A DNA stretch of 48,333 nt, counting the filler, from Catajapyx aquilonaris (lineage: Eukaryota), in the NCBI GenBank assembly GCA_000934665.2. It is 2 parts of 2 records of this genome, joined end to end, with 100 filler letters (N's around TTAATTAATTAA, not from the genome) between each part and the next. Parts side by side here need not be neighbours in the genome. Positions count along the whole stretch, not along the records: positions 1 to 24,109 come from JYFJ02005569.1; 1 more part is not named here. The stretch is one strand, 5' to 3'. Within the stretch, counting starts at the first letter, position 1; the number at the start of each line of letters is the position of its first letter. Positions 3,001 to 43,030 of the stretch are shown here, piece by piece. A program made the position numbers and the translations under genes. The notes beneath the pieces are model-generated. The model did no database searches and had not been told where the DNA came from. It was given only the letters and a program-made list of their open reading frames with translations.

Positions 3001-4042
3001 TGAACTACGAGGTTGCATCAGGAAATTGGAATATTTTATCTCCCTTTATTTTTGTCCTATTGATGCAGAAAATGAGGCAATGAAGAAATTAATTGAGACG
3101 TTATTTGAAATTTACAGAAAATCAGATGACTCCTGGACTAAAAGTATCGTGTGTTATTGCCTTTGGGAATCAATTATGTACTTCTTTGGTCAAAAGAAGT
3201 GGCGAAAAGATGATCAGTTTGTTGGATTCATCAAGAAAAAGCTTGATCCATTTGTATCACAAGAAATAAAGGCAGTTTCTGTTCAATTTCAAGGGGCTGC
3301 TGATAAACACAAGGAACCGCTACAATTATTATTAAGAGGAATAGATTCGGTAATGGACCTTGCATGGGCTTATATTCATTTGATGGACTGCATACCCAGA
3401 ACATGCCTGATGGACTCAGTTCACATAATATTCGAAGAGAAAAATGACAGCAGGTGGATTTCAGAAATAGGTTTCAGAATTTCCACAAGTATGCGAATGT
3501 TGAGCTGGGAAATGGCCTCTATTTTCGAGCGTTATGTAGTATCCCCTGACAGGGAAGACCTTTACGACATCGACATTTATTATAAGTTGGTAATCCCTCT
3601 TGCACAAATAATCAGACAAGGCTCTCCCCACTGTATTGCTAAATTAGGTCTTCTGTCAATCACAGCAACATATGTACAACTGGCTTGTTCATCCTTGAAC
3701 ACTGATTTTCTCAAAACTATTTTGGAAGCAATGAAATCAGTTTTCAATGGAAAATGGGGACCTGATGTGTATGCAGTATGGGAATACAGTCTGAAACTTA
3801 TGCTGGCTCTAGGACGCATCGGCTTAAAAATAATCGATGTGGGTGACAAGCTTCTCATTTTGGACCCAGCAGGAAATTTTCAGCATTTACTGAAAATTAA
3901 TTCACATGAAAAACTTGTGAAAGTAATCAGGCCCAAGCTTGCAGTTAGTCCCGAGGAAGAATTTGCTCAATTAGAAGCCCTTGCTCGTACTTCTGGAAAA
4001 GAATTTTTTTATAGAGATAATGAAGACATCATTCCTTACTAA
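97..4042 (+). pseudogene. NACHT/STAND paralog 1, disrupted (track ORFs 217-2994 and 3026-4042)
   Basis: Frame-1 homology begins at ~97 (SLFEGEIDDFVICTN, matching FEGEKKDFVLCTN). Walker A reads GDPGEGKLT (1675-1701, S/T replaced by L). Walker B VLLDGYDE and the WHD-like FVHFTYSEYF motif are present. TAA at 2992-2994 plus a frame change separates the C-terminal domain (LVIPLA...AGNFQ...KINSHEKLV). Confidence 0.8.
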
Positions 4043-5983: not shown

Positions 5984-6490
5984 GCCTTGTCATTATTAGA
6001 TTTAATACCCGAACAAGAGGCGGAAATTCTGCATGGGTATGATTATTTTTATGGCTTTAAAGGCATTTCCATTGTAACACTTCCCTTGCTCCATATGCTG
6101 ACATATTGCCTAGCTGCTGGCATGAGGAATACCATCAAAAGGTTCAGTGACTTGAAAGAGAATATGTCAGAATTTCCACAGGTCTGAAAACTTTGAGCCT
6201 GAAAATGGCCTGTGAATTCAATAAGCCATTACTACGTGTTCGCTCATCAATTTGGGATGATGTCTATGGCCGCAACATTTTTCATACTAATCATACATTA
6301 TAGTAACCCTCTTGCAGAAGTCATCTGACGAGGCTCTTCCTCGTTCCTCCCATATTAATAATAGATCAGCCTTTTTGAAAATCATGGCAGATTATGTACG
6401 GTACACTTTTGCATTATTACACGAGGATTCACGTTGTTCTTGGAACCTGAGGTTCTCATAACTACAGTATTTTAGAAGTAATGGAATCAC
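5984..6490 (+). pseudogene. Degenerate C-terminal fragment of a paralog-3-like NACHT gene, fused directly to the start of paralog 2
   Basis: Aligns to ~20635-21110 (GCCTTGTCATTATT...AACAAGAGGCGGAAAT...TATGTCAGAATTTCCACAGGTCTGAAAA...CCCTCTTGCAGAAGTCAT...TTTAGAAGTAATGGAATC) with several frameshifts. Confidence 0.85.
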
Positions 6491-9400
6491 TGATCCAGGT
6501 GATGCTCAATCAGGGAGACGTCGAGATCAATCCTGGACCCGACAATGGCCTGACAATGAGGGACTCTGAATCTAATCCCACATTACCTGTATACATTCAA
6601 CGCCCTCCTCTACCTCCTGGTTTTGTGTATGGTCATTCAAGGAGTGATGGAAGCTGTTTTTTTGATTCGTTCCGGCAGGGGTTGTGGCAACAGAAGGGAA
6701 TAAGCGTGACTGTTGAGGGACTAAGGCAAGTTTGCAAGGAGTTTGCAGAGAATAATCACGAAGAATGGTTTAAGAGAAACATTAATAAGTGCCATGATGA
6801 AACGGGGAAACTCATTCATAGTGAATCTCAGAGTCAATATGCAGAAAACATTTTACGTGATGATCGGTGGGGTGATTCTAATGTGGAAGGCAGGATACTG
6901 TGTCAAGAATATGGAGTTACTATAGGTCTGATTGAGAAAAACCCCATTAATGTAAATCCCCGGTGGTTATGCAACATCATTTGTGCTGATAGGACAGGAC
7001 CTGTAGAAAGTATAACTTATGGGACAGAAGATCAAGTGTGCATGATAAATGAAGGTAATAACCATTTTCAACCAATACTTAAAAAGATTACTCATGAAGT
7101 GTCACCTGGTCAAATAGATCAAAATAAGAGAAAAATGGGCGACTCAGTGCCAGATAATCAAGGCAGACCTAGCAAAATAGTTAGGTGGGAATATCCAAGT
7201 GAGGAAAATGTAAAAATTGAAAATTTAAAAGCTCAGAAAGAAAATGGTTATAAAAGACAGAAGTTGCATAGTCCTGGACCCAACAGTGGCACAGGGATAG
7301 ACTCTAAATGTGATATCACATCACGTGAACATTTGAAAGTTCAGCCAGACAATCAGCACGAAAATGCAACAGGGAATGAAAGAGCTGGCGATTTAAAACA
7401 GCCTGTAGTAGGATTAAGACGCAGCCTCCATGGTATAGTCTATCAACTAAAGTTGCTGATGTTATTTTTAACTCGAGGACTGAAGAAGGGGTATGATTTT
7501 AGATTAGCAACAGAAATGGAAGATGCTGGGAAATTTGACGACATTGTGTTTCTATGCAAAGGAAAGGGTGAGGTCAAAGAGCATTATCGCTTCCTACAAG
7601 CCAAGCACAAGTTGGAAGAGACAGAGAAAATATCTGGCCAAGATTTGCTAACAGAAAATACAAAGGGGGAGTTCTGCCTGGCAAAGTATTTCGATTCTTT
7701 TCGAAAAATTGAACACTCTCCAGTATTTGAAGGTGAAAAGAAGGATTTTGTCCTTTGCACGAATATTGGATTTGACTTTCCTAAAGCTGAAAAGGTGAAG
7801 GGGAAGAGGACGGGTTTCCCCTTAAGTGAAGCCATGTTTGATGAATTAGATGGTAAAGATGATGTTTTAGAAAATCCAAGGTTTAAATTCAAAAAGGAGT
7901 TTGATGGGAAGCCACTCTTGGTTTCCGCACTTAGAGGTTCCACTGACATATTCAAGCTGGCAAAGGGACTGGCTGAGTGTGTGTTGGATGGAAAGAAAAT
8001 AGATCCAGGCTACTCGAAAAATGATCCAACAGGAAATGCTCTTAGATCATATCATGTTGCATTAGGGAAGGGAGTTATTGATGTAAAGGAAAAAAAATTG
8101 CAGAAAGATTTTTGCAGAGTAGGGGAAAACATGTCCACTGATTTTGCAAAGTTTAGAGAAGTGTTCATGGAAGTGGCATATGTGGAACGAAGAAAGGGCT
8201 ATGAGCCAGTTGACGATCCCAGGATAGTTGAAGCTGACTTGAAACCATTTGCTGAACTACTTGCACAACGTTTAAAAGACCAAAAGAACCTGGGTCAGAA
8301 TAAACTCATAAAACAACATTTTGGCAAATTGTCTGGACATGTATTAGTAACGAGGAATGGCAAGGTCATGTTCCGCCCTGGGTTTTTAGATGGCACCAGT
8401 GCATTACCTGGAAATTTACAAGCCTTTAGAGAGCAATTGGAATTGGAACTGAAGGAGGTTCAACTGGAGTTAAATGACCTGCATTCCAAAGTCTTCAAAG
8501 TGCCTAAGACGTTTGAATGCTGTGAAGAAATTTTTATTGATGAAGACTCTTTTTGGAATGGCATAAGAACGAGGGAACTAAATATATTTGATGGCTTTGG
8601 AGAAGAGACGGAACCTCTCAAATCATGTGATGATTTTACCAATTTAATAGAAATAGCAATCGGGCAAAGTGATGAACCTGGAAGACATAAACTGGTTAAA
8701 ATAGAGGGAAAAGACAAAGTAACGATCGGGTATCTAGAACGATTGACGAAGGTATTAGAGCTAACTGATGATGGAAATCTAAAATTCAGTGAACCTTTTT
8801 TAAGGAATGGTAATGAGAGGAAAGATTTGAAGTATTTACGAACTAAATTAGCTGCTAAATTTTCACTTGAAGAACTTGGAAAGTACTGCTTTGATGGGAG
8901 TGGTTTCCGCCACTTTTTCATGCCAGATGAGAGCATGGAAGAGATCAATCGCGACTTTGGCACTTTTTTAAAGAAACTTACTTTTGCAGTCGAGCAACCT
9001 AATGAAGATAAATTAAGTAAAATTCTCCAAGGTGAGTGTAATGAGCTTAATGATATTAAAAGTGATTTAATTGCCGACTACATTCTTAAAAAGATGCTGA
9101 ACTGGTTCAAGAATCCAACAGGTACTTTCATGACCTCGGAGGATGGCAAAAAGCGGTTCAAAAAAGTGGGAGAAAAAATTCACACTATAGTTGTGTTGCA
9201 TGCAAAAAGGATAAAGTTTGAGCATAAGGTTAAACAGCTTGGCATTAGATTTTCAAACACTGATCGTGACTACTTAAGAGAGAGCCCACTTGTCAATCTT
9301 TTTGGACCAATGCCACTCACTACAATGTATCTTTTGCAAAGCCTTCGTAGCAAGGACATAAGCCCAATATTGTTAAACTTGGAAGATTTTGACCGCCTTC

Positions 9401-12400
9401 AAAAAGAACTTGTCAAGGAATATTCTCGTGCCACTGAAAGGGAATATTTGTTAATATTAACCTGTCGGAACTCTTTGAAGAGTGTTGTCTCTGATGAGAA
9501 ATCAACCTTAAGCAGAGTGAAGGAATTTGCAGACAGAAAGCGTCCTGTTGTTATTGTTAGTGAAGAAGCCCTGCCAGACATTTCCACAAAATGTTGTGAA
9601 GAGGTTGACAGGAATAATTTGAGTAACATCACTCCAGAATCCATATCTTCGTTGCTTGAGAACACCAAAATTAGGTCTCAAGGACATGACTTTGCATTAA
9701 TAGACTTTCTTTCCAACGATTGCTGCCACAAGGTCATAAATTCAAAAGTTTTAAATGCTTTTGTCAGTAGTCAGATCATAGAAATTGGAGCAACTTTTCC
9801 TGAGTTAGGAGAAGTCGGTTATTTTGTCGAAAGGACTCTGAAGCATTTCCAAGTTCATATTACAAAGGAACAGCTGAAGGGACTGCTCACTAGTTGTGGT
9901 GACATATTTGCTATAGATAACATTACACATCAAGAATTCTCTGCTTTGCTTGTTGAAGTAGGATTATCAGCAAATGAAGGGAAGAATAGAAAGAAAATTT
10001 TACTCTTTTCTGATAACGACAGTGATTTCAAAAAACTGTGCACAGACTCAACAGATCAGGTTGTCCACTGGATGGGCTACAGTAAGGATCATCAAACCCT
10101 GAAATTGAAACAGTCCCATGGCAGTTTGTTGAACTTGCGCAAATTTAAAAAACCTCTGGAAGGAATGGATGAAAATGATGACCAGCTGGTCATAATTTCT
10201 GGTCATCCTGGGGAGGGAAAAACTACCTTTCTAAATAATTGTCCTTCTGATCAATTGCTCTCATCATTTTGGTACATGAAGGTAAAACTCAATGACTTCC
10301 ATAATAAAATAAAAGAATCAAAGGCAACAGACTTGAACGGAGTTGTAGACTTCCTGTTTGAGACTGGGTGTGCAGGTCCAAAATCGGAATTTGGAAAACA
10401 GTTGCTTTTGCATCGCCTTAAAGGACATGGACAGGTTATGGTGTTGCTGGATGGCTTTGACGAAGTACCACCTGATCTGAGAGGAATCGTTATTAAATTG
10501 ATCGAAATTCTGAAAGCTGAAAGTGTTGAGACCAAAGTGTGGGTGTCGACTCGATCATATCTGCAGGATAATTTAGAAGATGCCCTAGGGATATTCTCCT
10601 CCATCTTGAATCCCTTTGATGAAGAAGAGCAGGAGATATTGTTTAACAAATACTGGAAATTCAAGCTAAATGTGAAAGAAAGTCAAGTGAAGAAAATAGG
10701 GCGAATAGGCGAATTTACTACTAAAATTGTGAAATATTTTCGCAATCAGGAATTTATGCAAGGGGGATTAGTTGGAAATGCTCTGCAGGCCCAAATTCTG
10801 GCTGATGTGTTTAAAGATGATTGCGAAAAATATTGCCAGCATAATTTCAGGCACGATTTTAAAGATCTCCTAGGTAGTAATTTAGATTTGACTAAACTCT
10901 ATAAGGCTTTTCACTCAGTTAAATATGATGAAATGTTTGCAAAGTTAAAAATACGATCAACATTTCCCATTGGTTTCAAAAATTCAATTTCTGATGCATG
11001 CAATAGAAAGCACAAGACTCTTGCTGTGAGAGCACTATTCTCTGGCCAAACTAAAGTTGTGCAATTAATAGAGAGTGAAGAAGAGGCTCGATTGACAGGT
11101 GAAGAGATTTCTCGTGCCGGTATAGTTCAAAATGCTGATAAGGCAAAGTTTCTGCATGGCACATACGCTGAGTACTTTGTGACTTATTTCTATGTGGATA
11201 TGATGAAACGGGACATACTTCAGGGCTCTGAACCTTTAATTTCAAGTCTTTTCACAGATCGTGGTAAACTCATTCGTGAGTTCATACCATCCATGGTTGA
11301 AAATACGATTTTGATGAAAAGGTGGGAGCAGATAGAGCTTTGCGACATCACTAGGGCACTTGATAATTCCACTTGTTTAATCATTTCAAACTTGTTTACA
11401 TTTGGAAGGGAAGAATATCGTCCACGATTATCAGAATTAGTCGAGGACATGAAGTTAAGCATCACATGGGATGAAACTAACCATCAGTATTACATCACTG
11501 AACTGGAATGTTTCACCACTAACCTGGAAAAATTTTCATCTTATTCTTTTTGTACTTTTGATACAGAAACTGAAGAGGCAATGAAGAAAGCAATTGAGTT
11601 CTTATTTAAAGTTGCAGGTAAATCAGAAGACTCCAAGATAAACGAGACAGTGAGTGATTGTCTTTGGGAATCACTAATGTACTTTATCAGTCATGAGAAG
11701 TGGCGAAAGGATGGCGATTACATTAAGCACGTAAAGAAGAAGCTTGTTTCACTCATGTCACCCAAGGTGAAAAAATATTTTGATAAGTTTCAAGAGGCTA
11801 TCAATAAAAAGGCTGCTGATAAATTATTTAAAGGAATAGAACCAAATAATCTAATCCACCTTGCATGCACTTATATTCATTTGATGGACAGCATGCCCAC
11901 AGATTACCTGATTAGGTGTGTTGACGAGATGTTCAAAATGATGAATGACCTTGGGTGGATTTTAAAAGTAGGTTTAAGAATTCCCACAGGTCTGAATATA
12001 ATGATGAGTGACCTAGGGTGGATTTTAAAAGTAGGTTTCAGAATTTCCACAGGTCGGAATATTTTGACTTTGCCAATGGCTAATATTTTCAAGTCTCATT
12101 TAATAACAAGCACTACCTCACCACAAAGGGATCCCTGTGTCCACATCATTTATCACACAAAGTTGGTAATCCCTCTTGCAAAAATAATCAGGCGAGGGCC
12201 TTCCGACCAGATTAATAAATTAGCTTTTCTGAGAATCACAGCAACAGCTGTAGACTTTTCCATTACACGAGGATTCCAGTTGTTCTTGAAACCTGATGAT
12301 CTCGACACTATTATGGAAGTCATGGAATCGCTTCTCAACAAAGAAAAGTCTCCGAAAGTGTTTGAAGATAGTGTGAAACTCATGTGTGCTCTGGGACGCG

Positions 12401-14174: not shown

Positions 14175-14374
14175 CAGGAGGGGATGTGCAAGGTGCGGTG
14201 CATGGCCAATTTTAGTGAACTCCCCCGGGTGGTTTAGTATATTGGAAATACCACCCAAGACAAAGCCAGAGGCGACCCTGAACTCTGCACGAGATGAAGG
14301 GGGTGTCCCCGGGCAGGATTTGATCCTGGGACCTTAATATCCATAGGCATTACCGCAGCACCACTTCGCCTCCC
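14175..14374 (-). mobile_element. tRNA-derived SINE family A, partial copy
   Basis: Reverse complement of the head and body of 21531-21868. Confidence 0.8.
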
Positions 14375-14844
14375 CCTGAACCTGGATATAAGCGTCCAGA
14401 GCAAGTGGTACTTGCTTGCACTTCTTGCCTTTTGCCCTAGTTTCGTGATTTCCTGCCAGTTTATTGTTGTTACTCGTTTTTGATATGGTTTGTGACCTTA
14501 TATTTTATACTTTAGGGCTATAAAATTATTCTAGCATTTTAATTTTACTGTAACATTGTCCTCCATAGTCCATACGCCAGAAAAAGTAAAATTTTTGCGC
14601 CTATTTGAGGTTTTTTCGTGCCTAAATATCTGGACTCTACTAATGAAGATCTGGAATTCAAAAGAATATACAGGGTGGTCGGTAAATGGCGGACAAGCTT
14701 CAGGTAGCGAGATTCCTTGTGAAAAATCTGTATATGGAAGTGAAGGTCATATTGCTCTACGAGGCCTGGTTAGGGCTCGCGAGGCCTCCAAAGTTTGGGC
14801 CAAATAATGATGTCACATCCGGCTGCGAAATTCAAACACTACCG

Positions 14845-15535
14845 TATCGCTACCGTACTCTACATACATAGTTAGCTTACATGTACTCCGAAGATACGGA
14901 CAAGATATTTTACAAATAATAACAGCTATACTTACCCGTTCATGCAAAACATTATGTGTTGGGATCAATTTTACTCGTCTAGAAGTCCCAAAATCAATTT
15001 TCAAAAATATAGCTGTAAACACTGGAAATTCAAATACTATCGGGCAACTGTTAGGCCGATTTAATTATGAAATACATTAAACCATACGCAGCATTTCCCT
15101 TGAGAATGGTGCCAAAAGAATTTGCTGAGAAATCGTCATACTTCTCTAGAATTAAATTGATACTTATCTGTGGCTTGATGCCACTTCGGAGAACTCCCAA
15201 ATTTATTTATTTCTCCTGAAGTACAACGACTTCAGAAAATTCTTGTGGAACAGTTTTCAAGATTGTCATTCCGTATATTTTAACATATTTCATAATTAAA
15301 TCAGCCTAACAGTTGGCTGGTAGTACTTGAACATTGAGTTTTTACAGCCCTATATTTGAAAATTAATTTAGGGACTGCTAGGCGAGGAAAATAATTGTTC
15401 CGAAGACATTCATACTGATGAGCATGAACGTGTAAGTGTAACTGTTATTATTTGTAAAACATCTTGTCAGTCCGTATATTCATAGTATGTGTAATCGAAA
15501 ATCTGGGCTTTTTTGGCCTTGCTGGTAGCGAATGA
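14845..15535. mobile_element. Degenerate copy of the palindromic piggyBac-like MITE at 30931-31680
   Basis: Shares GTACTCCGAAGATACGGACA.GATATTTTACAAATAAT and CATAATTAAATCAGCCTAACAGTTGG with that element. Confidence 0.75.
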
Positions 15536-15672
15536 TTGTACCTTCTTTTAATGCAAGAGGCCAATACAACTTTGACCGTAAAGACCGCTTATGAAGATGT
15601 AGCTTTAGGTGTAATAATTATAGCTAAAATTGCATTTGCTTGGCAGGCTACAAGGCATAATTGGCCATCAGC

Positions 15673-18600
15673 ATGGGAGTTGACCTGGTGGCCTGGAGGA
15701 GTCGACAAGGGTGGGGCTCCAAGGTCAACTGGGGTCAGAGGAGATGCCTCCAGCAGACTGGACAGAGGATGTCACAGCCACTCTGGCCTGCCTTGGCCCT
15801 ACTGGTCATGACCCTGCTAGCAACACTCAACTGTGCATCGGCCGTGGCTCAAAGCAATCCAAACAAGTCAATGGCATTGAAGCAGGTAACACTTCCAAGC
15901 CTTGGGGTTTGGAAGCATGGCACAGACCAAGGGAGGTGGATTCTCGAGTGCAGCATGGGAAGGGGACTGATCCAGGTGATGCTCAATCAGGGAGGGGTGG
16001 AGATCAATCCTGGACCCAACACTGGAACTGAGAAGGACTCTCAATCCAATCCCACTCCATCGGAAAGCATGGATATTCAGGGAGATAATCACCAAGAAAA
16101 TGTAGAAAAAAATGTAAGAGTTGTTATCATTGCGGATGAAGTATCACATAGTCAAAAAGGTCAGTACAAGAGAAAAATGGGCGATGATCAAGGCAGTCCT
16201 AGTAAAAGATTAAGGCAAGAATACTTTAGTGATGAACATGTAACTAAGGGTGCAGAGGAATATTCTGTTAAAGGAGTTAAGTCCATGTTCCATGGCTACA
16301 TGTATCAAGTCAAGTTGTTGACGTTATTTTTAGTTCGAGGCCTGAAAAAGGGGTACTCTTTTCATTTAGCAACAGAAATGAAAATAGCAGAAAAATTTGA
16401 TGATATTGTATTTCGATACAAAGAAAAGGATGAGGAAACAGTGCATTATCGCCTCGTACAAGCAAAGCACAAGTTAGAGGAGACGAACAAGAAAATATCA
16501 GGCCACGATTTGCTAACAGAAAATACACACGGAGAGTTCAGCCTGGTAGAGTATTTTCGCTCTTTCCAAAAAATAGAATCCTGCCCAGAATTTAAAGGTG
16601 AAAAGAAGGATTTTGTCATTTGCACAAATATTGGTTTCGACTTTTCTGAAGCGGAAAAGAAGCCTGTTTTTCCCTTAAGTGATGACATGTTCGAAAAATT
16701 AGATGGTGAAGATATTTTGATAGGTCCTACGTACAAATTCAAGGATAGTTTTGTTGGGAAGCGATTCTTAGTTTCTAAACTAGCAGGTTCCACTGACATG
16801 TTTAAGTTGGCGAAGGTCCTGGCTGAGTGTGTGTTGGATGGAAATGGATGTTTGAAAAACTATCCCACTCTTCTATTATATCAAGTTGCATTAAGGAAAC
16901 ACGTTATTGATGTAGAGAAAAGAACATTGCAGGAAGATTTTTGCACAGGAAAAAATATGTGCTCTGATGTTGCAAATTTTAGGCAAGTGCTTTTGAAAGA
17001 GGGATTTCTGGATCGTCAAATGGGCAACAAGTTTCATGAAAATCCTGTGATAGGGGAAGGTGCCTTGAAACCATTTGCTCAACTTATTGCAAAACTTTTA
17101 AATGAAGCTGACAAAGTGAAAGTACAAGATAATCTTTTTTGGAAATTGTCTGGACATGCATTAGTAAAGAGGGATGGTGAGGTCAAGTTCTGCTCTGAAT
17201 TTTTAGATGGTACTAGTGCATTACCTGGAAATCTCCAAGCCTTCAGAGATCAATTGAAAAAGGAACTTATAACTTGTGGGCTCACGTTAAATGACTTGCA
17301 TTCAAAAGTCTTCGAATTCACTGATCAGTTCCAAGGCCGTTGGAAATATTTTATTGATGAAAACCTCTTTTGGGATCGCGTAAGAAATGAAAAATTAATT
17401 ATACCATTTGAATTTGGGGAAGCATCACAGACTCTCACATGTGTTGATGACTTTACTAATATAGTAGAAGACGGCATCAGGAAAAGTGATGAATCTGGCA
17501 GACATAAACTGGTTAAAATAGAGGGAAGAAAGAAAATAACTGGGAACCTTGAACAATTGATGGAAGTATTAGAGGTAACTGAAAATGGCAATCTGAAATT
17601 CAGTGCATCTTTCTTTGGGAATGATGACTTGCCCAATAATAATTTGAATGAGTTTCGAACTAAATTGACAAGTAAGTTTACTCTTGAAGAACTTGGAGAG
17701 TACTGCTTCGATGGGAGTAGTTTCCGCCACTTTTACATACCAAATGAGAGCGTGGAAAAGATCAATAGGGATGTTGACACTTTTTTGAAGAAACTTACAT
17801 TTGCAGTCGATCAACCAAATGAACATGATTTAGGTGAAATTCTCCAAGATGAGTGTCAGGAGCTAATTAATGATGATAAGACTGATTTAGGGTTAACCTG
17901 TATTCTGAAGGAGACACTGACATGGTTCAGTAATCCGAGAGGTACTTTCGTGACGGGTCAGTGTTTCAACAATTGGTTAGAGGAAGCAAGAAAGAGAATT
18001 GGCACAATTGTATTGCATTCAATATCGCTAGAGTATCAGCATTGGGTTACACATTGCGGCATTGAATTTTTGAACACTGCTTGTGACGATTTAAGCAAGT
18101 TGCTGAATACTAATCTCAGTGATCAACACCCACTTGTCAATCTTGTTGGACCAACTCCACTCACTATGATAAAGCTGTGGCAGACACTTCATTACATGAA
18201 CAAACCCACAATATTTCTAAGCTTGGAGAATATTTCTCCACATCAAGATCTTGTCGAGTCAGTTATTTCTTCCAGTGAGAGCCAAGTTGTGGTAGTAATG
18301 GAGTGTTCGAACTCTTTTCGGGGACATGCCACATCACATGATGAAAGCATAGTGGCAGTAAAGAAATTTGTGGACAGCATGATAAATAAGGGTAAAAATA
18401 ACTTTGTTATTGTCAGCCAGAAAGCATTGACAAATATTTTCACAAACTGTTGTAAAGAAGTTCACAGCGATAATTTGAATGACCTCACTCCGGAATCCAA
18501 AACTAGGTTGCTTAATAAAACCAGAATTAAGTTTCAAGGACAAGACTTGTTCTTGAAAGAGCTTCTTCCCAACTATTGCTGCCACAAGATCATAAATTCA

Positions 18601-21327
18601 GAAGTGTTAAATTATATTGCTGAAGGTCAGCGCACAGAAATTGGAGCAAAGCAGCCAGGGTTAGGAGAAGTTGGTGGCTATTATGTTCCGAGGACTCTCA
18701 AGCATTTCCATGTTATTATTGAAAAGGAAAACCTGAAAAAACTGCTCACTAGTTGTTATGACATGTTTGCCTTAAGTAACATTACAAAGCGAGAGCTCAG
18801 GAAATTGCTTGCCGGAGAAGGAATCTCAGAATTTGATCAGAAGGACAGAATGAAAATTTTGGATATTGGTGATGAGGAGCATAGTTTCAAAAAACTGTGT
18901 GCTGATGCAGAACATCAGGTTGTCCACTTGATGGACTACAATAAGCATGATCAAACCCTGAGTTGGAAACGGTCCCGTGGCAGTTTGTCCAACTTACGAG
19001 AATTTAGAAAACCTGTGGAAGGAGTGCAAGAAATTAAGGACCAGTTGGCCATAATTTCTGGAGATCCTGGGGAGGGAAAATCTACCTTCCTCGATCATTG
19101 TGCATCTGATTTGTTACACCCCTCACTTTGGTACATTAAGATAACACTAAATGACTTCCATAATATAATAGACAAATCAAATGCAACAGACTTAACCGGT
19201 GCTGTAGACTTCTTGTTTGAGACTGGGTCTGCAGGTCCAAAGTCACATTTCGCAAAATATTTGCTTAAGCATCGCCTTAAAGGACATGGTCAGGTTATGG
19301 TGTTGCTGGACGGTTACGATGAATTGCCACCTCGTCTGAGAGGAAGAGTTATTAAATTGATCAAAACTCTGAAAGCTGGAAGTCCTAACGGCCAAGTGTG
19401 GGTGTCGACACGTCCGTATTTGCGGTATCATTTAGAAGACGCTCTAGGGATTTTCTCCTACGTTTTGATTCCATTCAATGAAAAAGAGCAAGGTAGATTT
19501 TTTAGAAAATATTGGCAAGTCAAGCTTAAAGTCAAGGCAGAGGAAGTAGGGAGATTTACCATTGCATTCTTGAAACATTTTCGCAAGCATAAATTCATGC
19601 AAGAGGGATTAGTTGGAAATGCTCAGCAAGCAAAAATGCTGGCAGATGTTTTTAAGGATAGATGTAAAAAATATTGCGATGCCAAAGTCGGTTATGATTT
19701 TAATGACCTCTCAGGTGATGATATTGATTTGAATGAACTGTATAAGAAGTTTTTGTCAGTTCAATATGATGTATTGTTTACAAAATTAAAATCTGAATTA
19801 TCGGGTCGTGAAGGTTTCAAAATGGTAAATTCTTATGCATGCGACAGACAGCACAAGAATATAGCAGTGAAAGCGCTATTTTCTGAGCAAAATGAAGTTG
19901 TGCAAATAACAGAAGGCGAAGAAGAGCTACTGTCTGATGATGATCTTTGTTTTGCTGGTATTGTTCAGAATGTTAAGGAGGCAAAGTTTGTGCATTTCAC
20001 TTATTCTGAGTACTATGTGGCTTGTTTCTATGTGGATATGATGAAGCAGGACAGGCTTAAAAGTTCTGTACCCTTCATTTCGATTTTTTTCGCAGATCGT
20101 AGCGAACTTATTCGCGAATTCGCCCTATCCATGATTAAAAAGACGAATTTGATGGAAAAGTGGAAGCTGATAATGCATTGCGACATAACTGGCTCAGTCG
20201 ATATTTCCATGAGACAGTTGTTGCAATTTGAAATGAAACAAAATTATCCTGGGCTATTACATTGTATAGACACCTTTAAATCATGCATTGGGAGGTATGT
20301 AAATGGCCTTTTTTATTATGATAATGATGTTGAACTGGAAAATGTTTCTAACCTTGCTTCCTGTATTCTTCAAACAAAAGTTGAAAAGGAAGTGAAGACT
20401 GCACTTGACGTGTTGTTTGAATTTAGAGGAAAATTTCGTTACCTTAAGTTAAATAAAAAAGTGGATCAATGTCTTTGGAAGTCAATTTCGTACTATATCA
20501 ATCAGAAGAAGTGGCGAAATGATGAATACATTAAAGCGTTAAAGGAGAAGGTTGTTTTACTCATGCCACCAGAAATCAAAACAGCTATTGACAGATTTGA
20601 AAACGCTACCAGTAGAGAGGACAAACTGTCTTCAGCCTTGTCATTATTGAATTTATTATCCAAACAAGAGGCGGAAATACTGCAGGTGTATGCATATATT
20701 TACGGCAGTAGCGGCATACCCATACGTACCCTTGCTCCCTATGTTGACAAATTGCTTCCTTCCCATTGTGAGCAATACTCTGATAAGATCAAGTGGCTTG
20801 AAAATCAATATGTCAGAATTTCCACAGGTCTGAAAATTTTGACCTTGAAAATGGCTGGTGAATTCAATGAGCCTTTGGTCTCTGGTCTCTCCCCATCAAG
20901 TGGCTGGGAAAATATCTATGGCCACAGCATTTTTCATACATTAGTAATCCCTCTTGCAGAAGTCATCAGAAGAGGCTCCTCCTCCCGCATTAATAAATTA
21001 GCGTTTCTGAAAATCGCAGCTGTATCTGTACGCTTTTGCATGTCACAAGGATTAAAGTTGAACTTAAAACTTGATGCTCTCATCACTATTTTAGAAGTAA
21101 TGGAATCGCTTCTCAATGAAACAGATATACGTGATGACGTGTATGAAAACAGTGTGAAACTCTTGTGCGCTCTGGGACACGGAGGATTAAAAATAATCGA
21201 GGTTGATGACAAGCTTCTTGTTCTGGAGAGAGCAGGAAATTTTCAGAAAGTGTTGAAAATCAATTCACACGACAATCTTGTGAAATTAATCCGGTCCAGG
21301 CTAAAACGTGAAGACAGGGAAAAATAA
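15673..21327 (+). CDS. Leader-2A-nuclease-NACHT protein (paralog 3), 1884 aa from the first ATG (track starts at TTG 15661), no OTU
   Basis: Leader MGVDLVAWRSRQGW with hydrophobic LWPALALLVMTLLATLNCASAVA. GGVEINPGP (15991-16017). FDDIVF (16396) and QAKH (16459). Walker A GDPGEGKST (19060-19086), Walker B VLLDGYDE, and FVHFTYSEYY. Confidence 0.9.
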   Translation: MGVDLVAWRSRQGWGSKVNWGQRRCLQQTGQRMSQPLWPALALLVMTLLATLNCASAVAQSNPNKSMALKQVTLPSLGVWKHGTDQGRWILECSMGRGLIQVMLNQGGVEINPGPNTGTEKDSQSNPTPSESMDIQGDNHQENVEKNVRVVIIADEVSHSQKGQYKRKMGDDQGSPSKRLRQEYFSDEHVTKGAEEYSVKGVKSMFHGYMYQVKLLTLFLVRGLKKGYSFHLATEMKIAEKFDDIVFRYKEKDEETVHYRLVQAKHKLEETNKKISGHDLLTENTHGEFSLVEYFRSFQKIESCPEFKGEKKDFVICTNIGFDFSEAEKKPVFPLSDDMFEKLDGEDILIGPTYKFKDSFVGKRFLVSKLAGSTDMFKLAKVLAECVLDGNGCLKNYPTLLLYQVALRKHVIDVEKRTLQEDFCTGKNMCSDVANFRQVLLKEGFLDRQMGNKFHENPVIGEGALKPFAQLIAKLLNEADKVKVQDNLFWKLSGHALVKRDGEVKFCSEFLDGTSALPGNLQAFRDQLKKELITCGLTLNDLHSKVFEFTDQFQGRWKYFIDENLFWDRVRNEKLIIPFEFGEASQTLTCVDDFTNIVEDGIRKSDESGRHKLVKIEGRKKITGNLEQLMEVLEVTENGNLKFSASFFGNDDLPNNNLNEFRTKLTSKFTLEELGEYCFDGSSFRHFYIPNESVEKINRDVDTFLKKLTFAVDQPNEHDLGEILQDECQELINDDKTDLGLTCILKETLTWFSNPRGTFVTGQCFNNWLEEARKRIGTIVLHSISLEYQHWVTHCGIEFLNTACDDLSKLLNTNLSDQHPLVNLVGPTPLTMIKLWQTLHYMNKPTIFLSLENISPHQDLVESVISSSESQVVVVMECSNSFRGHATSHDESIVAVKKFVDSMINKGKNNFVIVSQKALTNIFTNCCKEVHSDNLNDLTPESKTRLLNKTRIKFQGQDLFLKELLPNYCCHKIINSEVLNYIAEGQRTEIGAKQPGLGEVGGYYVPRTLKHFHVIIEKENLKKLLTSCYDMFALSNITKRELRKLLAGEGISEFDQKDRMKILDIGDEEHSFKKLCADAEHQVVHLMDYNKHDQTLSWKRSRGSLSNLREFRKPVEGVQEIKDQLAIISGDPGEGKSTFLDHCASDLLHPSLWYIKITLNDFHNIIDKSNATDLTGAVDFLFETGSAGPKSHFAKYLLKHRLKGHGQVMVLLDGYDELPPRLRGRVIKLIKTLKAGSPNGQVWVSTRPYLRYHLEDALGIFSYVLIPFNEKEQGRFFRKYWQVKLKVKAEEVGRFTIAFLKHFRKHKFMQEGLVGNAQQAKMLADVFKDRCKKYCDAKVGYDFNDLSGDDIDLNELYKKFLSVQYDVLFTKLKSELSGREGFKMVNSYACDRQHKNIAVKALFSEQNEVVQITEGEEELLSDDDLCFAGIVQNVKEAKFVHFTYSEYYVACFYVDMMKQDRLKSSVPFISIFFADRSELIREFALSMIKKTNLMEKWKLIMHCDITGSVDISMRQLLQFEMKQNYPGLLHCIDTFKSCIGRYVNGLFYYDNDVELENVSNLASCILQTKVEKEVKTALDVLFEFRGKFRYLKLNKKVDQCLWKSISYYINQKKWRNDEYIKALKEKVVLLMPPEIKTAIDRFENATSREDKLSSALSLLNLLSKQEAEILQVYAYIYGSSGIPIRTLAPYVDKLLPSHCEQYSDKIKWLENQYVRISTGLKILTLKMAGEFNEPLVSGLSPSSGWENIYGHSIFHTLVIPLAEVIRRGSSSRINKLAFLKIAAVSVRFCMSQGLKLNLKLDALITILEVMESLLNETDIRDDVYENSVKLLCALGHGGLKIIEVDDKLLVLERAGNFQKVLKINSHDNLVKLIRSRLKREDREK
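15991..16017 (+). other. 2A-like motif variant GGVEINPG|P
   Basis: LIQVMLNQG.VEINPGP is otherwise identical to paralog 2; consensus D is replaced by G. Confidence 0.65.
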
Positions 21328-21530
21328 TTTAAGGATTCATCTGACAGTGAGCATCATTTTTCGAAGCACCCACCCTGGAAAGATTCCTCGCCCATTTGAG
21401 ATCCAGAAAAAATCAGAGTATATTAAAGGCCATAATTATCATGCAGTGAACGTGTCTCATGTGCCAAAGACACTGTTGGGTTCAAATGACTCACATCCAC
21501 TCCATAATGAAAACATTATTATTCATTAAG

Positions 21531-34250: not shown

Positions 34251-34492
34251 GATTATTATTATTATTATTATGATTATTATTATTATTATTATATCTTACG
34301 TTTTCCTTGTACAGTATAGGGCTCCATACTAGATGGTACATTTGCCGAGTGTCCCCTGTAGGGGACGGCCCTTTTCTTACAATCTAGCATTCCATAATTT
34401 TTTTTATCATTTTTGTTGTGTTTTGGGGACTTTATAATTGATATTTAAGGAGGTTGGCCCAGCATTGCCTTTCAACCTCCAAGGATAGGGAA

Positions 34493-34744: not shown

Positions 34745-35764
34745 CTACTATCCGTTTATTTAATATAGAGCCCTGTGTTTGACTCTAAATAACTCCCAGG
34801 CAAATTATTCAAAAAAATAAAGTTATATATCGTTCAAAAGCTAGTTTAAATCCACGTTACATATATGCGAGTTGTTTTCCTATCGTCAGTCTCTAATTTT
34901 TTATCGTAAAAAGAAGGCAGAAAAGTGTCATTTTTTGACTAGTTGCCAACGTTGCACCGCAAAGTGAATTTTTTTATGACACTTTCAGGAGGCCAAAAAA
35001 ATCCCCCTGTGAACCCTGGATAGTGCACATCTTTGTCTATCTAATGATATATTTGAAACGTTGAGATCGCCATTTCTGTAATCATAATTAAGTTAATACA
35101 CCTCTGTTATCTCGGCCATTTATAATCCGAATTACTTCGCGAATGTATCGACGGCAGGCCCGAAATGTACGTGATAAGATTACATTGTGCTCTATTACAC
35201 TTAAAAAATTTAAAGTATTGTTTTAGTAGGTTTAATAAAAAAGGACCCAGCCCGCTTTCTGGCGGGAATAGACGGTGATACTTTTAAATACGTTTAAAAT
35301 TTTTAGTGTAATAGAGTACGGTGTAATCTTATCAAGCACATTTCTGGCTTGCCGTCGATACATTCGCGAAGCAATTCGAATTATAAACGGCTGAGATAAC
35401 AGAGGTGTGCAATTAACTTAATTATGATTACAGAAATGGCGATCTCAATGTTTCAAATATATCATTAGATAGACAAAGATGTGCACTATCCAGGGTTCAC
35501 AGGGGGATTTTTTTGGCCTCCTGAAAGTGTCATAAAAAATTCACTTTGCGGTGCAACGTCGGCAACTAGTCAAAAAAATGACACTTTTCCGCCTTCTTTT
35601 TACGATAAAAAATTAGAGACTGACGATAGGAAAACAACTCGCATATATGTAACGTGGATTTAAACAAGCTTTCGAACGATATATGACTTTATTTTTTTGA
35701 ATAATTTGCCTGGGAGTTGTTTAGAGTCAAACACAGGGCTCTATATTAAATAAACAGATAGTAG
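34745..35764. mobile_element. ~1-kb foldback/palindromic element
   Basis: CTACTATCCGTTTATTTAATATAGAGCCCTGTG... is mirrored at the right end; ~480-bp arms with few mismatches. Confidence 0.85.
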
Positions 35765-36708
35765 GTTAATGTAATATTTTCAACAGATTTTGCAGTCTAT
35801 CTGTGAAGTCAGGCTGTAAATTGCTATTCGTTAGCAGAGAAATGCCATCAGCTTTTTAATTCATGTGGCAGACTGTTACGTTAACATTGTAAATATTTCG
35901 CTGGCAATCGAAAATCAAAAGCACGGTTTTCTCTCTTTTACTCCAATTTGCAGTTTAACAACATTAATGAGCAGTGGACCACATTCCTAATTTTGCTTGG
36001 CTTTTTCCCCCCCTCGTGTCAACAGCATGTGAAAGGTGTTGAGAACATGATTGTAATGGTGTTCATCATAATCGTCATCATCACCATCACGACATTTCCC
36101 TATAAGGGGTTGTCAGCGATGACGGTCCGAGCCACAAGGTAACCCAAAATATGAACTAAATTATAACTTGTAAAAATAAACCTATAAACAACCCGTCCCG
36201 CCCCCCACCCCTGCCCATTTCAGATGACAAACACTCAATATTAAATTTAAATATTACACTATGCAACGCGGTACAGGGGAAGAGGAATCAGCAACTGTTA
36301 AATTCCTCCAAGTGACTACAATATGTAATTAATGCTATTAAAATTGTGTAACTAAATGCCAGATTTATTACACAATTATTGTAATAGCATTAATTACTAT
36401 ACAGTAAATACAGTAAACGTGAGATTTAATTACACAATTGTAATAGAATTAATTATTATTCATCCCATTACTTACAATCCTGTTCTCAATCCCTTACGAT
36501 TGGTATAAGGGAAAAAGCTGAATGCAACATTAGGTGGTCGGTTGCTCATCAGTTATGTTAATGCACCTGCAAGAACTTCTTACATGTATGGGAAAGTTTG
36601 TTTGTTTGTCCATGGCAGGAAACAGGCTGTGGGAAGAACAGGCTCCGCTGCTAGCCTATTTGTTCGATAAGTACTAAGTATTAATGGGACCAATATTTTT
36701 CCCCAAAG

Positions 36709-37383
36709 CACTCTTTTCTCTGGGCCTGTGAACACGGCAGCATGATGGAGGTGGAACGAATGGTGGAGAAGCAAAAAGGGATCGAAGGACTTGTGGGCCT
36801 GGTGGACGACACCAACGGCTGGAGCGGGCTGCACTTGGCGGCCAAGAGAGGCGAGGATGCAGTGGTCGCTTTTCTGGTGAAGCAGGGCTGGCCAATTGAC
36901 CAGCAAGGGCTGGCGGAGGACACACCGCTGCACCTGGCCGCCATGGGTGGACATCCATCAACCTGCGGGCACCTGATCCGTGCAGGGGCGGAGGTCAAGG
37001 CCAAGGACGTCGATGATGATGAGCCGATCCACTATGCCTCACGGAAAAACCACGTAACAGTTGTTGACATCCTCCTGAAAGAAGGGGCATGCCTGAATGA
37101 ACCAGGCCTCATGAACTTTACACCTTTGCACCATGCAGCAGAGTGCGGCTGTCTAAACCTGGTTAAGTATCTCGTAGAGGCAGGTGCAGATCACTCCAAA
37201 AAGGATACTTATGGTCTGATGGCCCTCCACTATGCTAGGAAGAAGGGGAAGGCACAGGTGGTGAAGTATCTGGAGGTGAGCTTGTCCGCCAACCATTGAA
37301 CCTATCAGAAGAACAGACTCATTAATGACTTGGTCATAATTATGACGATGCTTCCCTCTTACTCTTTGCAGGACATCATGTGA
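36709..37383 (+). CDS. Ankyrin-repeat protein, 3' exons (36709-37275 and 37372-37383); 5' exon(s) not located
   Basis: Five to six ANK units (GWSGLHLAAKRG, DTPLHLAAMGG, DEPIHYASRKN, FTPLHHAAECG, LMALHYARKKG). Acceptor TTTTCCCCAAAG|CAC, donor GAG|GTGAGC, and acceptor CTCTTTGCAG|GACATCATGTGA. Confidence 0.8.
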
Positions 37384-39283: not shown

Positions 39284-39876
39284 TACATAAATATGCGCCA
39301 CTCTGTGCATATATATGAGCAGAACTAGCACAGACCACTTGCTTTGAGCTGGATTGCTGCTGAAGACGTGGGGTGTGTTTTTGGTCCCTCTCCAGGAAGC
39401 TGGGGAAGGGGCACTGAGGAGAGGTGGAAGCGGGCGATACCCGTGGACTGGGGTTCACGCTGCTGGCTAATGAATAGAGCAGTTTTAATATGACTTCCCA
39501 TGCTCGCCAGTCTGAGTAATGATGTGATTAGTGAATCGTTTGCAATATATTCATCCAAATGGATACAAACTGATTTTCTTCCACATGGTATACACTCCGT
39601 AAAGAATGAGTTCCTCATTATGATAAAATAAATAATTGATTTATGATATTATTGCATGTTTCTTAACTTTAATTGGCTCATTACATTTCCAAAATTAGCG
39701 CGATGAACGAAGAGTGTCGTGTCTGTTAGTTTCGCGCAGCCACGGTTTCGGCTCATCTCGTCTCTTGATTTTCTCCCCACGCCATCTTCCATTCCCGTTC
39801 ATGTGATTCCAGTGTTCCTGTTCTACCGTTCCTTTGTTGGCATGTCCTCACTGTGAACACTGTCCCATGGGCGCCG

Positions 39877-42178
39877 CACAGTGGCCAATGTCAGGAAAAA
39901 CACGAAAGAAAATGGTAGCTCCTAAACTAAACCGTTTAAGTACGTAAAAAACACTTCTCCCCATGTTTTCCGAGTCGCTGATTTCGATTTTTATGTCATT
40001 TTGAACATAGGCCTACAGGGTGTACTAAAAACTCACTATGGAATCTACGAACGTGTACAATATGCATTACAAATAGGTGAAAATAACATTTACCGATGTT
40101 TTCGCGGTCCTAATTTTGATTTTTTAGCTTATTTTGTACCAGGACATACAGGGTGTACCATAAAAAGACCATCGAATTTAAGAACTTGTGGAATCTGCAT
40201 TACAAGTACGGATATGTGAAAATAGTATTTTACCGTATGTTGGTGGACAATGATTTTGATTTTTAGGATATACTGAACCCAGACAAATAGCTTGTATCAA
40301 AAACACCGTCAAATTTGAGATATCGTGGAATAAATAGTACAGTAGCTATATAACACGATAGCATTTAATAATAGGCCTATATGTAGGTGAAAGGAATGTT
40401 TCCCCAGTTTTTATGGTCGCTGATTTAGATTTTGAGGAAAATTCCAACCCAGGCCAACAAATTGTATCGTAAACACCATAACCCCTCCAAAAGTAACAGA
40501 AAATAATATACAAAATACGCAGTTCAAACATTCGGCATTCTTCTGATTCATTGGAACGCGCCTGCTTTTGACATGATTGCATAATGTTAAAAATTAAATG
40601 TTTAGGAATATAAGTACTTGGTCTCGTAGAGCATGGATTTGGAACTGTTAGCAGAATATCAATAATGGGTACTTGTTTCTTGTAAATCCGAGAAATTTCA
40701 ACTTGTAACATTCCGCAAATTTTCACAAATTTTGAAGTTCAATTAGGCATACAAAACGGAGTCAGTACGAGTCAGTGATGAAATTGGATTTAAGTTGACC
40801 TGAGGATAATAGGGAAACTATCCAAGTAAGAATCAGCTGCGGCGAGCCGCAGCTGAAGGAAATATTCTACGATATTCACTTTCAGAGGCCACTTCATCTT
40901 CTTTTTGCACTGAATTACTGCAGTATTAGTATTACGGTGCGACCCAACTTCACAAAATGGTACCTTGGGACAAAAATTATTAGTCCAAAAGAGACCCTGT
41001 GGTTTGAGGCATAAAATTTTGAAGCTATACCTACAGGGTGTCCCAAAAACTCACTATGGAATCTACGAACGTGTACAATAATTTTTGTCCCAAGGTAGCA
41101 TTTTGTGAAGTGGGATCGCACCGTACTACCAATACTGCAGTAATTCAGTGCAAAAAGAAGATGAAGTGGCCCCTGAAAGTGAATATCGTAGAATATTTCC
41201 TTCAGTTGCGGGTCGACGCAGCTGATACTTACTTGGATAGTTTCCCTATTATCCGCAGGTCAACTTAAATCCAATTTCATCACTGACTCGTACTGACTCC
41301 CTTTGGTATGCCTAATTGAACTTCAAAATTTGTGAAAATTTGCGGAATGTTACAAGTTGAAATTTCTCAGATTTACAAGAAACAATTACCCATTATTGAT
41401 ATTCTGTTAACAGTTCCAAATCCATGCTCTACGAGACCAAGTACTTATTTTCCTAAACATTTAGTTTTTAACATTATGCAATCATGTCAAAAGCAGGCGC
41501 GTTCCGATGAATCAGAAGATTGCTGAATGTTTGAACTGCGTATTTTGTATATTATTTTCTGTTACTTTTGGAGTGGTTATGGTGTTTATGATACAATTTG
41601 TTGACCCTGGGTTGGAATTTTCCTCAAAATCTAAATCAGCGACCATAAAAACTGGGGAAACATTCCTTTCACCTACATATAGGCCTATTATTAAATGCTA
41701 TCGTGTTATATACTGTACTATTTATTCCACGATATTTCAAATTTGACGGTGTTTTTGATACAAGCTATTTGTCTGGGTTCAGTATATCCTAAAAATCAAA
41801 ATCATTGTCCACCAACATACGGTAAAATACTATTTTCACATATCCGTACTTGTAATGCAGATTCCACAAGTTCTTAAATTCGATGGTCTTTTTATGGTAC
41901 ACCCTGTATGTCCTGGTACAAAATAAGCTAAAAAATCAAAATTAGGACCGCGAAAACATCGGTAAATGTTATTTTCACCTATTTGTAATGCATATTGTAC
42001 ACGTTCGTAGATTCCATAGTGAGTTTTTAGTACACCCTGTAGGCCTATGTTCAAAATGACATAAAAATCGAAATCAGCGACTCGGAAAACATGGGGAGAA
42101 GTGTTTTTTACGTACTTAAACGGTTTAGTTTAGGAGCTACCATTTTCTTTCGTGTTTTTCCTGACATTGGCCACTGTC
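39877..42178. mobile_element. Transib-like non-autonomous foldback element (2.3 kb)
   Basis: Left end CACAGTGG; right end CCACTGTC (one terminal mismatch). 5-bp GC-rich TSD CGCCG at 39872-39876 and 42179-42183. ~1.1-kb near-identical inverted arms around a 95-bp spacer. Confidence 0.8.
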
Positions 42179-43030
42179 CGCCGGTCGGAATGCAGCGATG
42201 GGTACATATGTACCAAAATGGCGTCGCATTTTCCTTTCTTATTACCTCTTCTTACTATCGCAAGGCCACATTGCTTTTCCGACATGCGTTGTTGCGGGTA
42301 CACGCCACGTTTGGGGCAGTTCTCTTTTGACGGGTCGGTGTTGTCTGTTTTTATTGATTTTGGAAGTGTATCAAAATAAACCCATGTTAGGTTCATGTAA
42401 TTTTGGGAAAACTGTACTACACCCGTTGGTAATACTGTTCATATTTTGCAACACTAACACCGTGATATTTAGTATATGAATGCGTAGAATAGGGAGATGA
42501 CGGTATATATTTCAGTACTGCTAAATTATTAAGTTCTATAGTTCACACATTTTGTGTGCATGTTGGCATTATGAAGTCATCAACTTCCGGAGTAAAATCA
42601 TTTCGTTCGACGGTAGTCGGTACTCGGTAGTTTCTGCGCACGTTTCTGGCGGAACCTGCTTTGTGGTTTGTGCCACAGACGACGCCACAACGGAGAGAGA
42701 GAGGGATTCACTATGGTAAGGTTTTATACTTTTATCCAGTGTAATGTTGCATATTTGCCTGATTGTGCGTCATGCAAGGGGACTAGTTTATTGTATGTGT
42801 ATTGCATTTTTGTGGGGAAGACAAATCAACTCTGAGGATAGAAAGAGGGAGTATTACATTGTGTATGTCACCTGCACTGAGAAGCCCTCAATTGCTTTGA
42901 GGCCCTGCAAGTAAACAGCTTAGCTCTTGGTGTCGCTGAAGAATGGAAACCTTACAGCATAGCAAGGTGGAGTAGCCATATGAGAGGAATATGGAGAATT
43001 TGGGACAGCTAGAAGTGGCATTGCGCCTTA

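Follow-up and report, generated by a model that had tools for sequence, protein, structure and literature searches.

The cellular use of 2A (StopGo) peptides is rare and its purpose open; the signal of the sea-urchin NLRs is the one host case that has been worked out. In Strongylocentrotus purpuratus, as described by Roulston et al. (2016, PMC4981915), a 2A fronts a NACHT protein of the innate-immunity type and a hydrophobic element could route the read-through product to the endoplasmic reticulum (ER). Both features recur in a gene of Catajapyx aquilonaris (assembly GCA_000934665.2) that we call P3, located at 15673–21327 of the stretch of 48,333 nucleotides analysed here, hereafter the window, in which several paralogs without introns (P1, P2, P3 and a remnant) stand in tandem, about 8.5–8.8 kb apart. 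All the features of P2 and P3 located below are on the plus strand. The likeness is partial: in the sea urchin one 26-aa signal/2A precedes DEATH-NACHT-LRR, whereas in P3 a 114-aa leader carries a helix (residues 37–58) and a 2A (residues 99–115) that are separate, with a Gly at position 12 of the 2A. Besides, the body of P3 is a nuclease-NACHT without LRR or DEATH match, and its paralog P2 has no signal. P3 thus has a 2A near the N-terminus of a NACHT protein, but this 2A is not itself the signal, and the C-terminal LRR of a canonical NLR is missing.

The other described relatives are the ORF1p and ORF2p proteins of non-LTR (long terminal repeat) retrotransposons (Odon et al. 2013, PMC3708506; PMC13405545; PMC11512398) in which, like in P3, a leader of 80–125 aa displays a hydrophobic stretch before the 2A. 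According to the supplement of PMC13405545, the ORF1p of a tick long interspersed nuclear element (LINE), KAH9367238.1, even shares with P3 the start motif MG[IV]x4[WY]RxRIG. Unlike those leaders, that of P3 is followed neither by an ORF1 coiled-coil nor by apurinic endonuclease (APE) or reverse transcriptase (RT) domains, and no alignable homology to an element was found. The reading that we favour, with a probability of about 0.55, is that a captured leader gives P3 its translation start, and that the 2A strips this leader, freeing and rationing a cytosolic or nuclear nuclease-NACHT.

P3 is an intact, single-exon open reading frame (ORF) of 1884 aa (ORF call and Pfam), opened by the ATG at 15673, in which a leader, a 2A, a motif resembling a nuclear localization signal (NLS), a nuclease-like domain, a NACHT domain and a C-terminal region without name succeed one another. 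The leader, residues 1–114, starts with MGVDLVAWRSRQGW, reads LWPALALLVMTLLATLNCASAVA at residues 37–59 and ends with LIQVMLNQGGVEINPG|P115. An earlier, sequence-only reading of this DNA had described a 114-aa leader and GGVEINPG|P ahead of a 1770-aa body, and the ORF is exactly so built. It had also found the leader GC-richer than the rest of the ORF, which our counts bear out: GC is 0.57 in the leader versus 0.38 in the body, and GC at third codon positions 0.64 versus 0.37. The observed/expected CpG ratio is 0.15 in the leader versus 0.55 in the body, and just 0.5% of the 345-nt segments of the window are as GC-rich as the leader. A change-point fit, together with the CpG ratio, delimits a GC-rich, CpG-poor island at 15638–16063 (from the leader through the 2A to some 15 codons further on) that would be the grafted segment; the blastn similarity between P3 and P2, which begins at the 2A, stops at 16055, near the end of this island. 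The composition thus supports the leader as a foreign graft supplying the first ATG.

The nearest in-frame stop lies 4 codons 5' of this ATG and no ATG is found from a putative acceptor at 15646 to 15673, so that 15673 is the first possible start of P3; its context, AGCATGG, is strong. The putative 3' splice site (ttgcatttgcttggcAG, 15621–15646), recognized from its sequence 26 nt before the ATG, has a moderate pyrimidine tract and fell below the crude pyrimidine cut-off of our splice-site scan. Further upstream, a conserved block common to the upstream regions of P2 and P3 (13119–13918) is probably a promoter with a non-coding first exon, with candidate donors at 13734 and 13754. We infer from these elements a gene model for P3 made of this first exon, an intron and the acceptor at 15646, expression included. 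The leader itself contains two donor-like sites matching at 7 of 9 positions, CAG|GTAACA (15886) and CAG|GTGATG (15976), from which it might be spliced out; in that case, or with a downstream start, it would not be translated with the body and the 2A would be a relic. This appears very unlikely: no good acceptor lies near the 2A (only the one at 16375 passed the crude filter), the start motif and the 2A are in the same frame, and a stop-free leader frame arises in only 115 of 20,000 base shuffles (about 0.6%), while the remaining five frames hold 1–6 stops.

The first residues of the leader, MGVDLVAWRSRQG (15673–15711), fit MG[IV]x[LIV]xx[WY]Rx[RS]IG except for I12Q. We formulated this motif after having seen examples of it in the supplementary table of 344 2A-bearing proteins of PMC13405545; eight proteins of that table start with MGV or MGI, and seven of them have [WY]Rx[RS]IG at positions 8–13 and then a 2A-like peptide. 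These seven, which come from four phyla, comprise two proteins of sponges, one of them ankyrin-3-like, two of corals, a very-large-GTPase-like protein of a clam, an ORF of a cockroach and the tick LINE ORF1p. The P3 leader is in register with the motif, I12Q being the sole mismatch, and the chance of such a tail given MG[VI] is about 1e-5. In the informal group defined by MG[IV]x4[WY]RxRIG, a helix and a 2A, P3 thus finds its place both by residues 1–13 (bar I12Q) and by its hydrophobic segment, behind which an in-frame 2A comes within some 120 residues; the two sponge proteins of the table are spaced nearly as P3, with the helix at about 50–61 and the 2A at 86–106. The sequence-only reading had placed leaders with a motif of this kind ahead of ORFs of arthropod non-LTR (CR1/L2-like) elements. 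The motif is real, since it is carried by 7 of the 8 MGV/MGI proteins including one curated LINE ORF1p, but sponge, coral and clam show that it is specific neither to arthropods nor to CR1/L2. Conserved from sponge to tick, this 13-residue motif is apparently undescribed: most subscription journals, theses and Repbase reports aside, we found no description of it in the literature, the text of the source preprint PMC13405545 included, which does not use the word "leader" and reports tests of 20-mer 2As only.

To place these features among transposons, we used a metagenome set of 121 listed loci with a codon pattern of the type G[DG][VI]E[TILPM]NPGP (the true total being at least 121). None of the 121 has the strict in-frame start motif, while a relaxed six-frame test reveals a degenerate start motif upstream of the 2A in three (L038, L047 and L086); four further loci and one site of the window also matched the relaxed motif and were treated as chance. 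In L038 (1774–2530) and in L047 the motif and a hydrophobic stretch stand 560–710 nt 5' of the 2A in a different frame, and these loci are possibly intron-split or decayed forms of a P3-type leader; the frame following the 2A of L038, considered as DEATH-like, has no Pfam match. In two other loci (L023, 305–985, and L077, 1124–1969) the 2A immediately precedes a herpesvirus-tegument-type deubiquitinase domain (PF04843), to which the post-2A start of a coral motif-leader protein is similar. A separate hydrophobic stretch about as strong as that of P3 is found in 20 of the 40 leaders of at least 65 aa from the listed loci, and APE and/or RT in 15 of 27 downstream frames, one of them under the Pfam cut-off; the 27 had been picked among the 121 loci as long or of the GG type. 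Taken together, these two counts indicate that a helix plus a 2A is a generic anatomy of transposon leaders; adding the start motif gives a three-part layout that is mobile and recurs. Within the window, blastn of the leader gave the 2A of P2 as sole match; the leader deprived of its 2A gave at best E 0.81 against the leaders of the 121 listed loci; the DNA pattern of the start motif had 6 matches in viral contigs, none with a 2A in the fetched locus; and an exact look-up of four proteins returned no identical entry.

The 2A block of P3 extends from L99 to P115 (15967–16017), with a predicted skip between G114 (16012–16014) and P115 and a Gly (codon 15994–15996) at the canonical Asp position. 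The core (D/G/C/N)(V/I)ExNPGP, which is expected about 0.0004 times in six frames, is seen twice, in P3 (GVEINPGP) and in P2 (DVEINPGP), the two being homologous to each other. The block of P2 (LIQVMLNQGDVEINPGP, 6490–6540), which has the canonical Asp, is identical to that of P3 at 48 of 51 nt, versus 72% identity over the body; only 1 of 1644 segments of the body equals this figure, and over the 45–48 nt that follow the block the identity is about 67%. Within these 17 codons we count 1–2 replacement changes for 7–10 expected (P 0.0004–0.02), and about 2 silent changes for 3.9 expected, i.e. near the background.

P2 (6481–12543) is an intact paralog of 2020 aa with a 19-aa, 2A-only leader, then OTU, nuclease and NACHT (ORF call; OTU and NACHT by Pfam), and its homology with P3 begins exactly at L99. 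Its leader is not among the hydrophobic peaks of the protein. Its ATG, in strong context, comes from the ...EVMESL of a broken paralog C-terminal coding region (5984–6491, plus strand) that is fused to the 2A and replaces the long leader; 21 nt there are the same as in the ...LEVMES of P3. On this comparison, the 5' end of P2 is made new by a rearrangement in which the start motif and the helix were lost and the complete 2A was kept. As P2 retains a complete 2A without a signal-like leader, the 2A, and not the ER targeting, looks like the part under selection, as judged from the two paralogs.

The history and the function that we propose are the following. A mobile module of three parts (the start motif MG[IV]x4[WY]RxRIG, one hydrophobic helix and a 2A) would have been captured as a leader, and grafted once onto the ancestor of an intronless, Wolbachia-phage-related nuclease-NACHT family, thereby giving it a eukaryotic start. 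Translation would begin at 15673, where the sequence is seen and expression presumed. The helix would be out of the ribosome at about 95 residues and, following the established geometry of the signal recognition particle, may take the ribosome to the ER before the 2A is reached. At NPG|P, as reporters with related peptides suggest, skipping and restart would release on the cytosolic side a Pro-started NLS-nuclease-NACHT of 1770 aa, the working product; alternatively the ribosome might fall off, or read through and send the body to the ER route as a dead end. With these three outcomes the 2A would both remove the leader and ration a potentially toxic nuclease.

Several observations weigh against this proposal. 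Just one of the seven motif proteins of the table is curated as a LINE protein. No donor or homolog of the leader was found by phmmer among 1.84 billion representatives, by word-seeded protein searches (0 of 76 and 0 of 374 candidates), by atlas searches (best 0.82 and 0.78, under the lead level) or among the leader pattern matches in viral and metagenome contigs (166 and 196, none confirmed); the sole phmmer match, a 3339-aa repeat protein aligned over 11 stretches (E 3e-5), was rejected as unrelated. The contig depth over the leader, although depth is not a copy number, does not exceed that of the body, a point against a young, high-copy transposon with copies at least 80% identical. The selection on the 2A is deduced from one pair of paralogs, and a short tract of gene conversion could mimic it. 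The hydropathy of the upstream LIQVMLNQ is 0.96, below the median of 1.94 for 117 natural 2As, and the single QGDVE peptide of a published screen does not skip, so that even the Asp form may be weak. Finally, the tree of the nuclease domains presented below does not settle a Wolbachia origin of the body, its deeper branches being open, and we claim no donor for the body. The idea that a captured transposon leader supplied the start thus stands for the graft and for the first ATG, and not for the transposon, of which no donor homolog was found; since sponge and clam carry leaders of this type on host genes as well, a gene may have been the immediate donor instead of a LINE.

The hydrophobic stretch of the leader, residues 37–58 (15781–15846), is signal-peptide- or signal-anchor-like by its hydropathy, with a core of 13 residues and a possible AVA|Q cleavage site; residues 40–58 are the most hydrophobic 19-mer of the entire P3 ORF (Kyte–Doolittle 2.05; next 1.36). 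The leader had been called hydrophobic, which is right for this one stretch of 13–22 residues and wrong for the leader as a whole. In signal-anchor-2A reporters (PMC2978324) the downstream protein is cytosolic or nuclear if skipping works and goes to the ER if it is inhibited, so the dual targeting suggested by the sequence-only reading is physically possible. A true dual targeting, in the style of the sea-urchin NLR, would give a cytosolic or nuclear skipped product and a functional secreted or membrane read-through form, the D-to-G change raising the read-through. HeLa and plant cells provide a precedent for it (PMC4981915), skipping can be inhibited by a signal placed upstream, the fusions then going to the ER (PMC2978324), and the strong hydrophobic core with its AVA|Q site would suit it; moreover no D12 substitution of P2A or F2A got to 0.6 activity in the data of bioRxiv 10.64898/2026.09.24.754024, so that D-to-G should shift the ratio of the products. 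On the other side, P2 carries a 2A without signal, and the signal-peptide-like start MSQPLW.. needs M33 and W38, which are private to P3, both being Arg in other genomic copies. The NLS-nuclease-NTPase body has no luminal or extracellular domain; the layout of helix and 2A is frequent among transposon proteins whose work requires the nucleus; and 40 residues separate signal and 2A in P3, which are a single peptide in the sea urchin. Sorting, as the purpose of the leader, is weakened by these points and we consider it unlikely.

The same reading had described the GGVE 2A as a variant, with a D-to-G change. GGVE is a known form of the core and no oddity, and we reject an unprecedented variant: the core has been widened to (D/G/C/N)(V/I)ExNPGP (PMC12846837), and natural GG-type cores are found in a published screen and in 10 of the 121 listed metagenome loci, 3 of the 6 tested preceding APE (L036, L070 and L108). 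PMC12846837 reports that in viruses Gly is as frequent as Asp at position 12, but with different upstream motifs, and that D12A abolishes F2A. Since D12 changes cripple P2A and F2A, the D-to-G of P3 probably lowers skipping. In the published human-cell screen of 20-mers, 54 rows have GGVE or GGIE, of which 6 without intact NPGP were removed; the 48 remaining GG[VI]ExNPGP peptides divide into 25 skipping, 5 fall-off only and 18 non-skipping, and the 18 GDVEINPGP peptides of this screen into 7, 5 and 6 respectively. Several of the skipping GG peptides are in the xRxLIxxLLxxGG register of P3, and Gly naturally stands at the Asp position in two motif-leader proteins (clam and cockroach). Seven motif-leader peptides figure in the screen, 5 with fall-off, 1 skipping and 1 non-skipping, and 4 of the 7 lowered the protein level; the authors of PMC13405545 propose the control of abundance as the usual role of 2As. 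A search of supplements from two large screens (including PMC12338488) returned the 2A peptide of neither P3 nor P2. Upstream of the core, a favourable context has hydrophobic residues at positions 4, 6 and 7 of F2A and a Gly at 11; P3 has I, V, M and G there, but a polar N-Q at 9–10. By analogy with these peptides, we predict for the Gly 2A of P3 a partial and probably reduced skipping; a D/G tuning of skipping between paralogs would be plausible.

Other copies of the leader were sought in the DNA contigs of one sample, possibly the own source of the assembly, on the basis of 40 difference rows out of 918 and some of the pieces; one further run covers 4 of 30 bins and does not bear on the leader. 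A leader-like sequence occurs on 3–6 other contigs, which read Arg at both 33 and 38, differ silently at 49 and have a C at 15996; one was seen joined to a paralog body. In this divergent 831-nt contig, of low depth and with 115 differences and 32 gaps, the junction of leader, 2A and body recurs independently, on which ground an assembly artefact was rejected, with the caveat that no identical contig listed spans the whole leader and that the runs may be the source sample. Identical contigs start at 15965 though P2 shares only 15966–15994, which suggests a third copy differing at 15995, where GAC is the simplest codon; Asp is then probably the state of the family and Gly private to P3. This leaves room for decay: D-to-G, I12Q, R33M and R38W would be neutral or harmful changes in a copy on its way to a pseudogene. 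The cluster contains three broken paralog pieces, the changes are private to P3 with respect to the 3–6 other contigs, I12 never varies among the 7 examples of the motif in the table and the 3 from metagenomes, and D12 substitutions cut the activity of P2A and F2A. Decay nevertheless seems improbable for a copy whose 1884 codons are intact and whose dN/dS to P2 is 0.44 in the nuclease and 0.53 in NACHT (0.75 over the body), the more so as skipping is recorded for 25 of the 48 GG[VI]ExNPGP peptides, several of them in the register of P3, and as Gly is natural in the clam and cockroach leaders.

Turning back to the proposal of a captured start removed by its 2A, the body that would be released comprises a bipartite NLS-like motif, KRKMGDDQGSPSKRLR, at residues 166–181 (16168–16215; a pattern match, its function being presumed), a PD-(D/E)XK-type nuclease-like domain with the motif KFDD...QAK and a Cap4/LmuA/Avs3-like fold (16258–16842), and a NACHT NTPase domain at residues 1126–1281 (19048–19515; PF05729, E 4.7e-9). 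The name nuclease-NACHT given to it from the sequence is secured by Pfam for NACHT; for the nuclease region, where Pfam has no match, it relies on the KFDD...QxK motif, invariant in 15 of 15 aligned relatives, and on weak fold matches: the model has a pLDDT of 62 and its top matches are LmuA, Avs3 and Cap4, with Z of 5–6.7 and Foldseek E of 0.03 or worse. No LRR, ankyrin or TPR was matched by Pfam in the body at E ≤0.01. These parts would suit the cytosol and the nucleus, an NLS-like motif, a nuclease and an NTPase being presumably of no use in the ER lumen. Residues 700–1120 and 1460–1884, without Pfam name, have a dN/dS to P2 of about 1, against about 0.5 in the nuclease and NACHT, and are candidate fast-evolving sensor regions.

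With residues 98–450 as query we found 22 relatives at 33–55% identity, namely ankyrin or TPR proteins of Wolbachia, unnamed records and proteins of insects (ant, beetles, mealybug, fly). Not one of these 22 shows NPGP within its first 900 aa, so that the leader appears as an addition to a body that normally lacks one. In a tree of 24 nuclease domains, those of these 22 relatives, P2 and P3 (the unrelated P0023 being excluded), the two paralogs group as sisters (100/99).

The rest of the cluster is typical of birth and death. P1 is broken (217–2994 plus 3080–4042) by an internal deletion and a frameshift, and the last copy, at about 22948–23967, is a remnant full of stops. The junction that follows the 2A is found again in P2, in degenerate form (HSPGPNSGTG...), at 7270–7390 ahead of the nuclease, which suggests an internal duplication; OTU, which P3 does not have, sits between the two junction copies. 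P2 also has an in-frame 63-nt tandem duplication in its C-terminal region (11937–12062, 92% identity). Long inverted repeats, MITE or foldback-like, lie at 14872–15532, 30918–31691, 34745–35764 and 39872–42183; the first, a relative of the second, is inside the putative first intron of P3. Another repeat, SINE-like, recurs at 14175–14380, 21526–21748, 27517–27738 and 34027–34277. Together with AT-rich repeats and the insect homologs, these elements speak for an arthropod-like animal. A GC-rich ankyrin-repeat frame at 36685–37299 (Ank_2, E 2.5e-32) is probably an exon of a neighbouring host gene.

Three other known systems are to be compared with P3. As in the bacterial Avs3/Avs4 STAND nucleases and in Cap4/LmuA, a nuclease is N-terminal to a STAND-class NTPase; this is a resemblance and not a membership, Z and E being weak and PADLOC assigning no family to P2 or P3. 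The NACHT/OTU/ankyrin genes of the eukaryotic association module of prophage WO and their arthropod homologs (Bordenstein 2016, PMC5062602) are close by the body, that of P3 aligning to Wolbachia and insect proteins (33–55% over the nuclease) and P2 having OTU; unlike this module, P2 and P3 have no match to ankyrin or to the latrotoxin C-terminal domain, and the relatives have no 2A. P3 would illustrate a way for a symbiont-related gene without introns to acquire, from a mobile leader, both its eukaryotic start and a safety valve.

The closest parallels for the leader are found in the table of PMC13405545: two proteins of the sponge Halichondria, XP_064388148.1 and XP_064395439.1 (ankyrin-3-like), and XP_045168672.2 of the clam Mercenaria (very large inducible GTPase-like) display, like P3, motif, helix and 2A on a large immune-type host protein, with almost the same spacing in Halichondria, while the bodies are unrelated and the phyla different. 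We put forward, as a tentative extension to which we give rather low odds, that the leader is a portable cassette of translational control that retroelements would have spread and that dangerous immune effectors of several phyla would have recruited, each on its own. It would bring the ribosome to the surface of the ER and split the output between free active protein, fall-off and membrane-trapped read-through product, and paralogs would retune it by the D/G change or by losing the helix; its recruits would be the death/ankyrin proteins of sponges, the giant GTPase of the clam and the nuclease-NACHT of P3 type. As for the sea-urchin NLR, the cluster offers a natural experiment that may be set beside it, with a long-leader Gly copy, a leaderless Asp copy, and evidence of selection on the 17-residue 2A alone, and this natural series points to the removal of the leader and to dosage control rather than to sorting.

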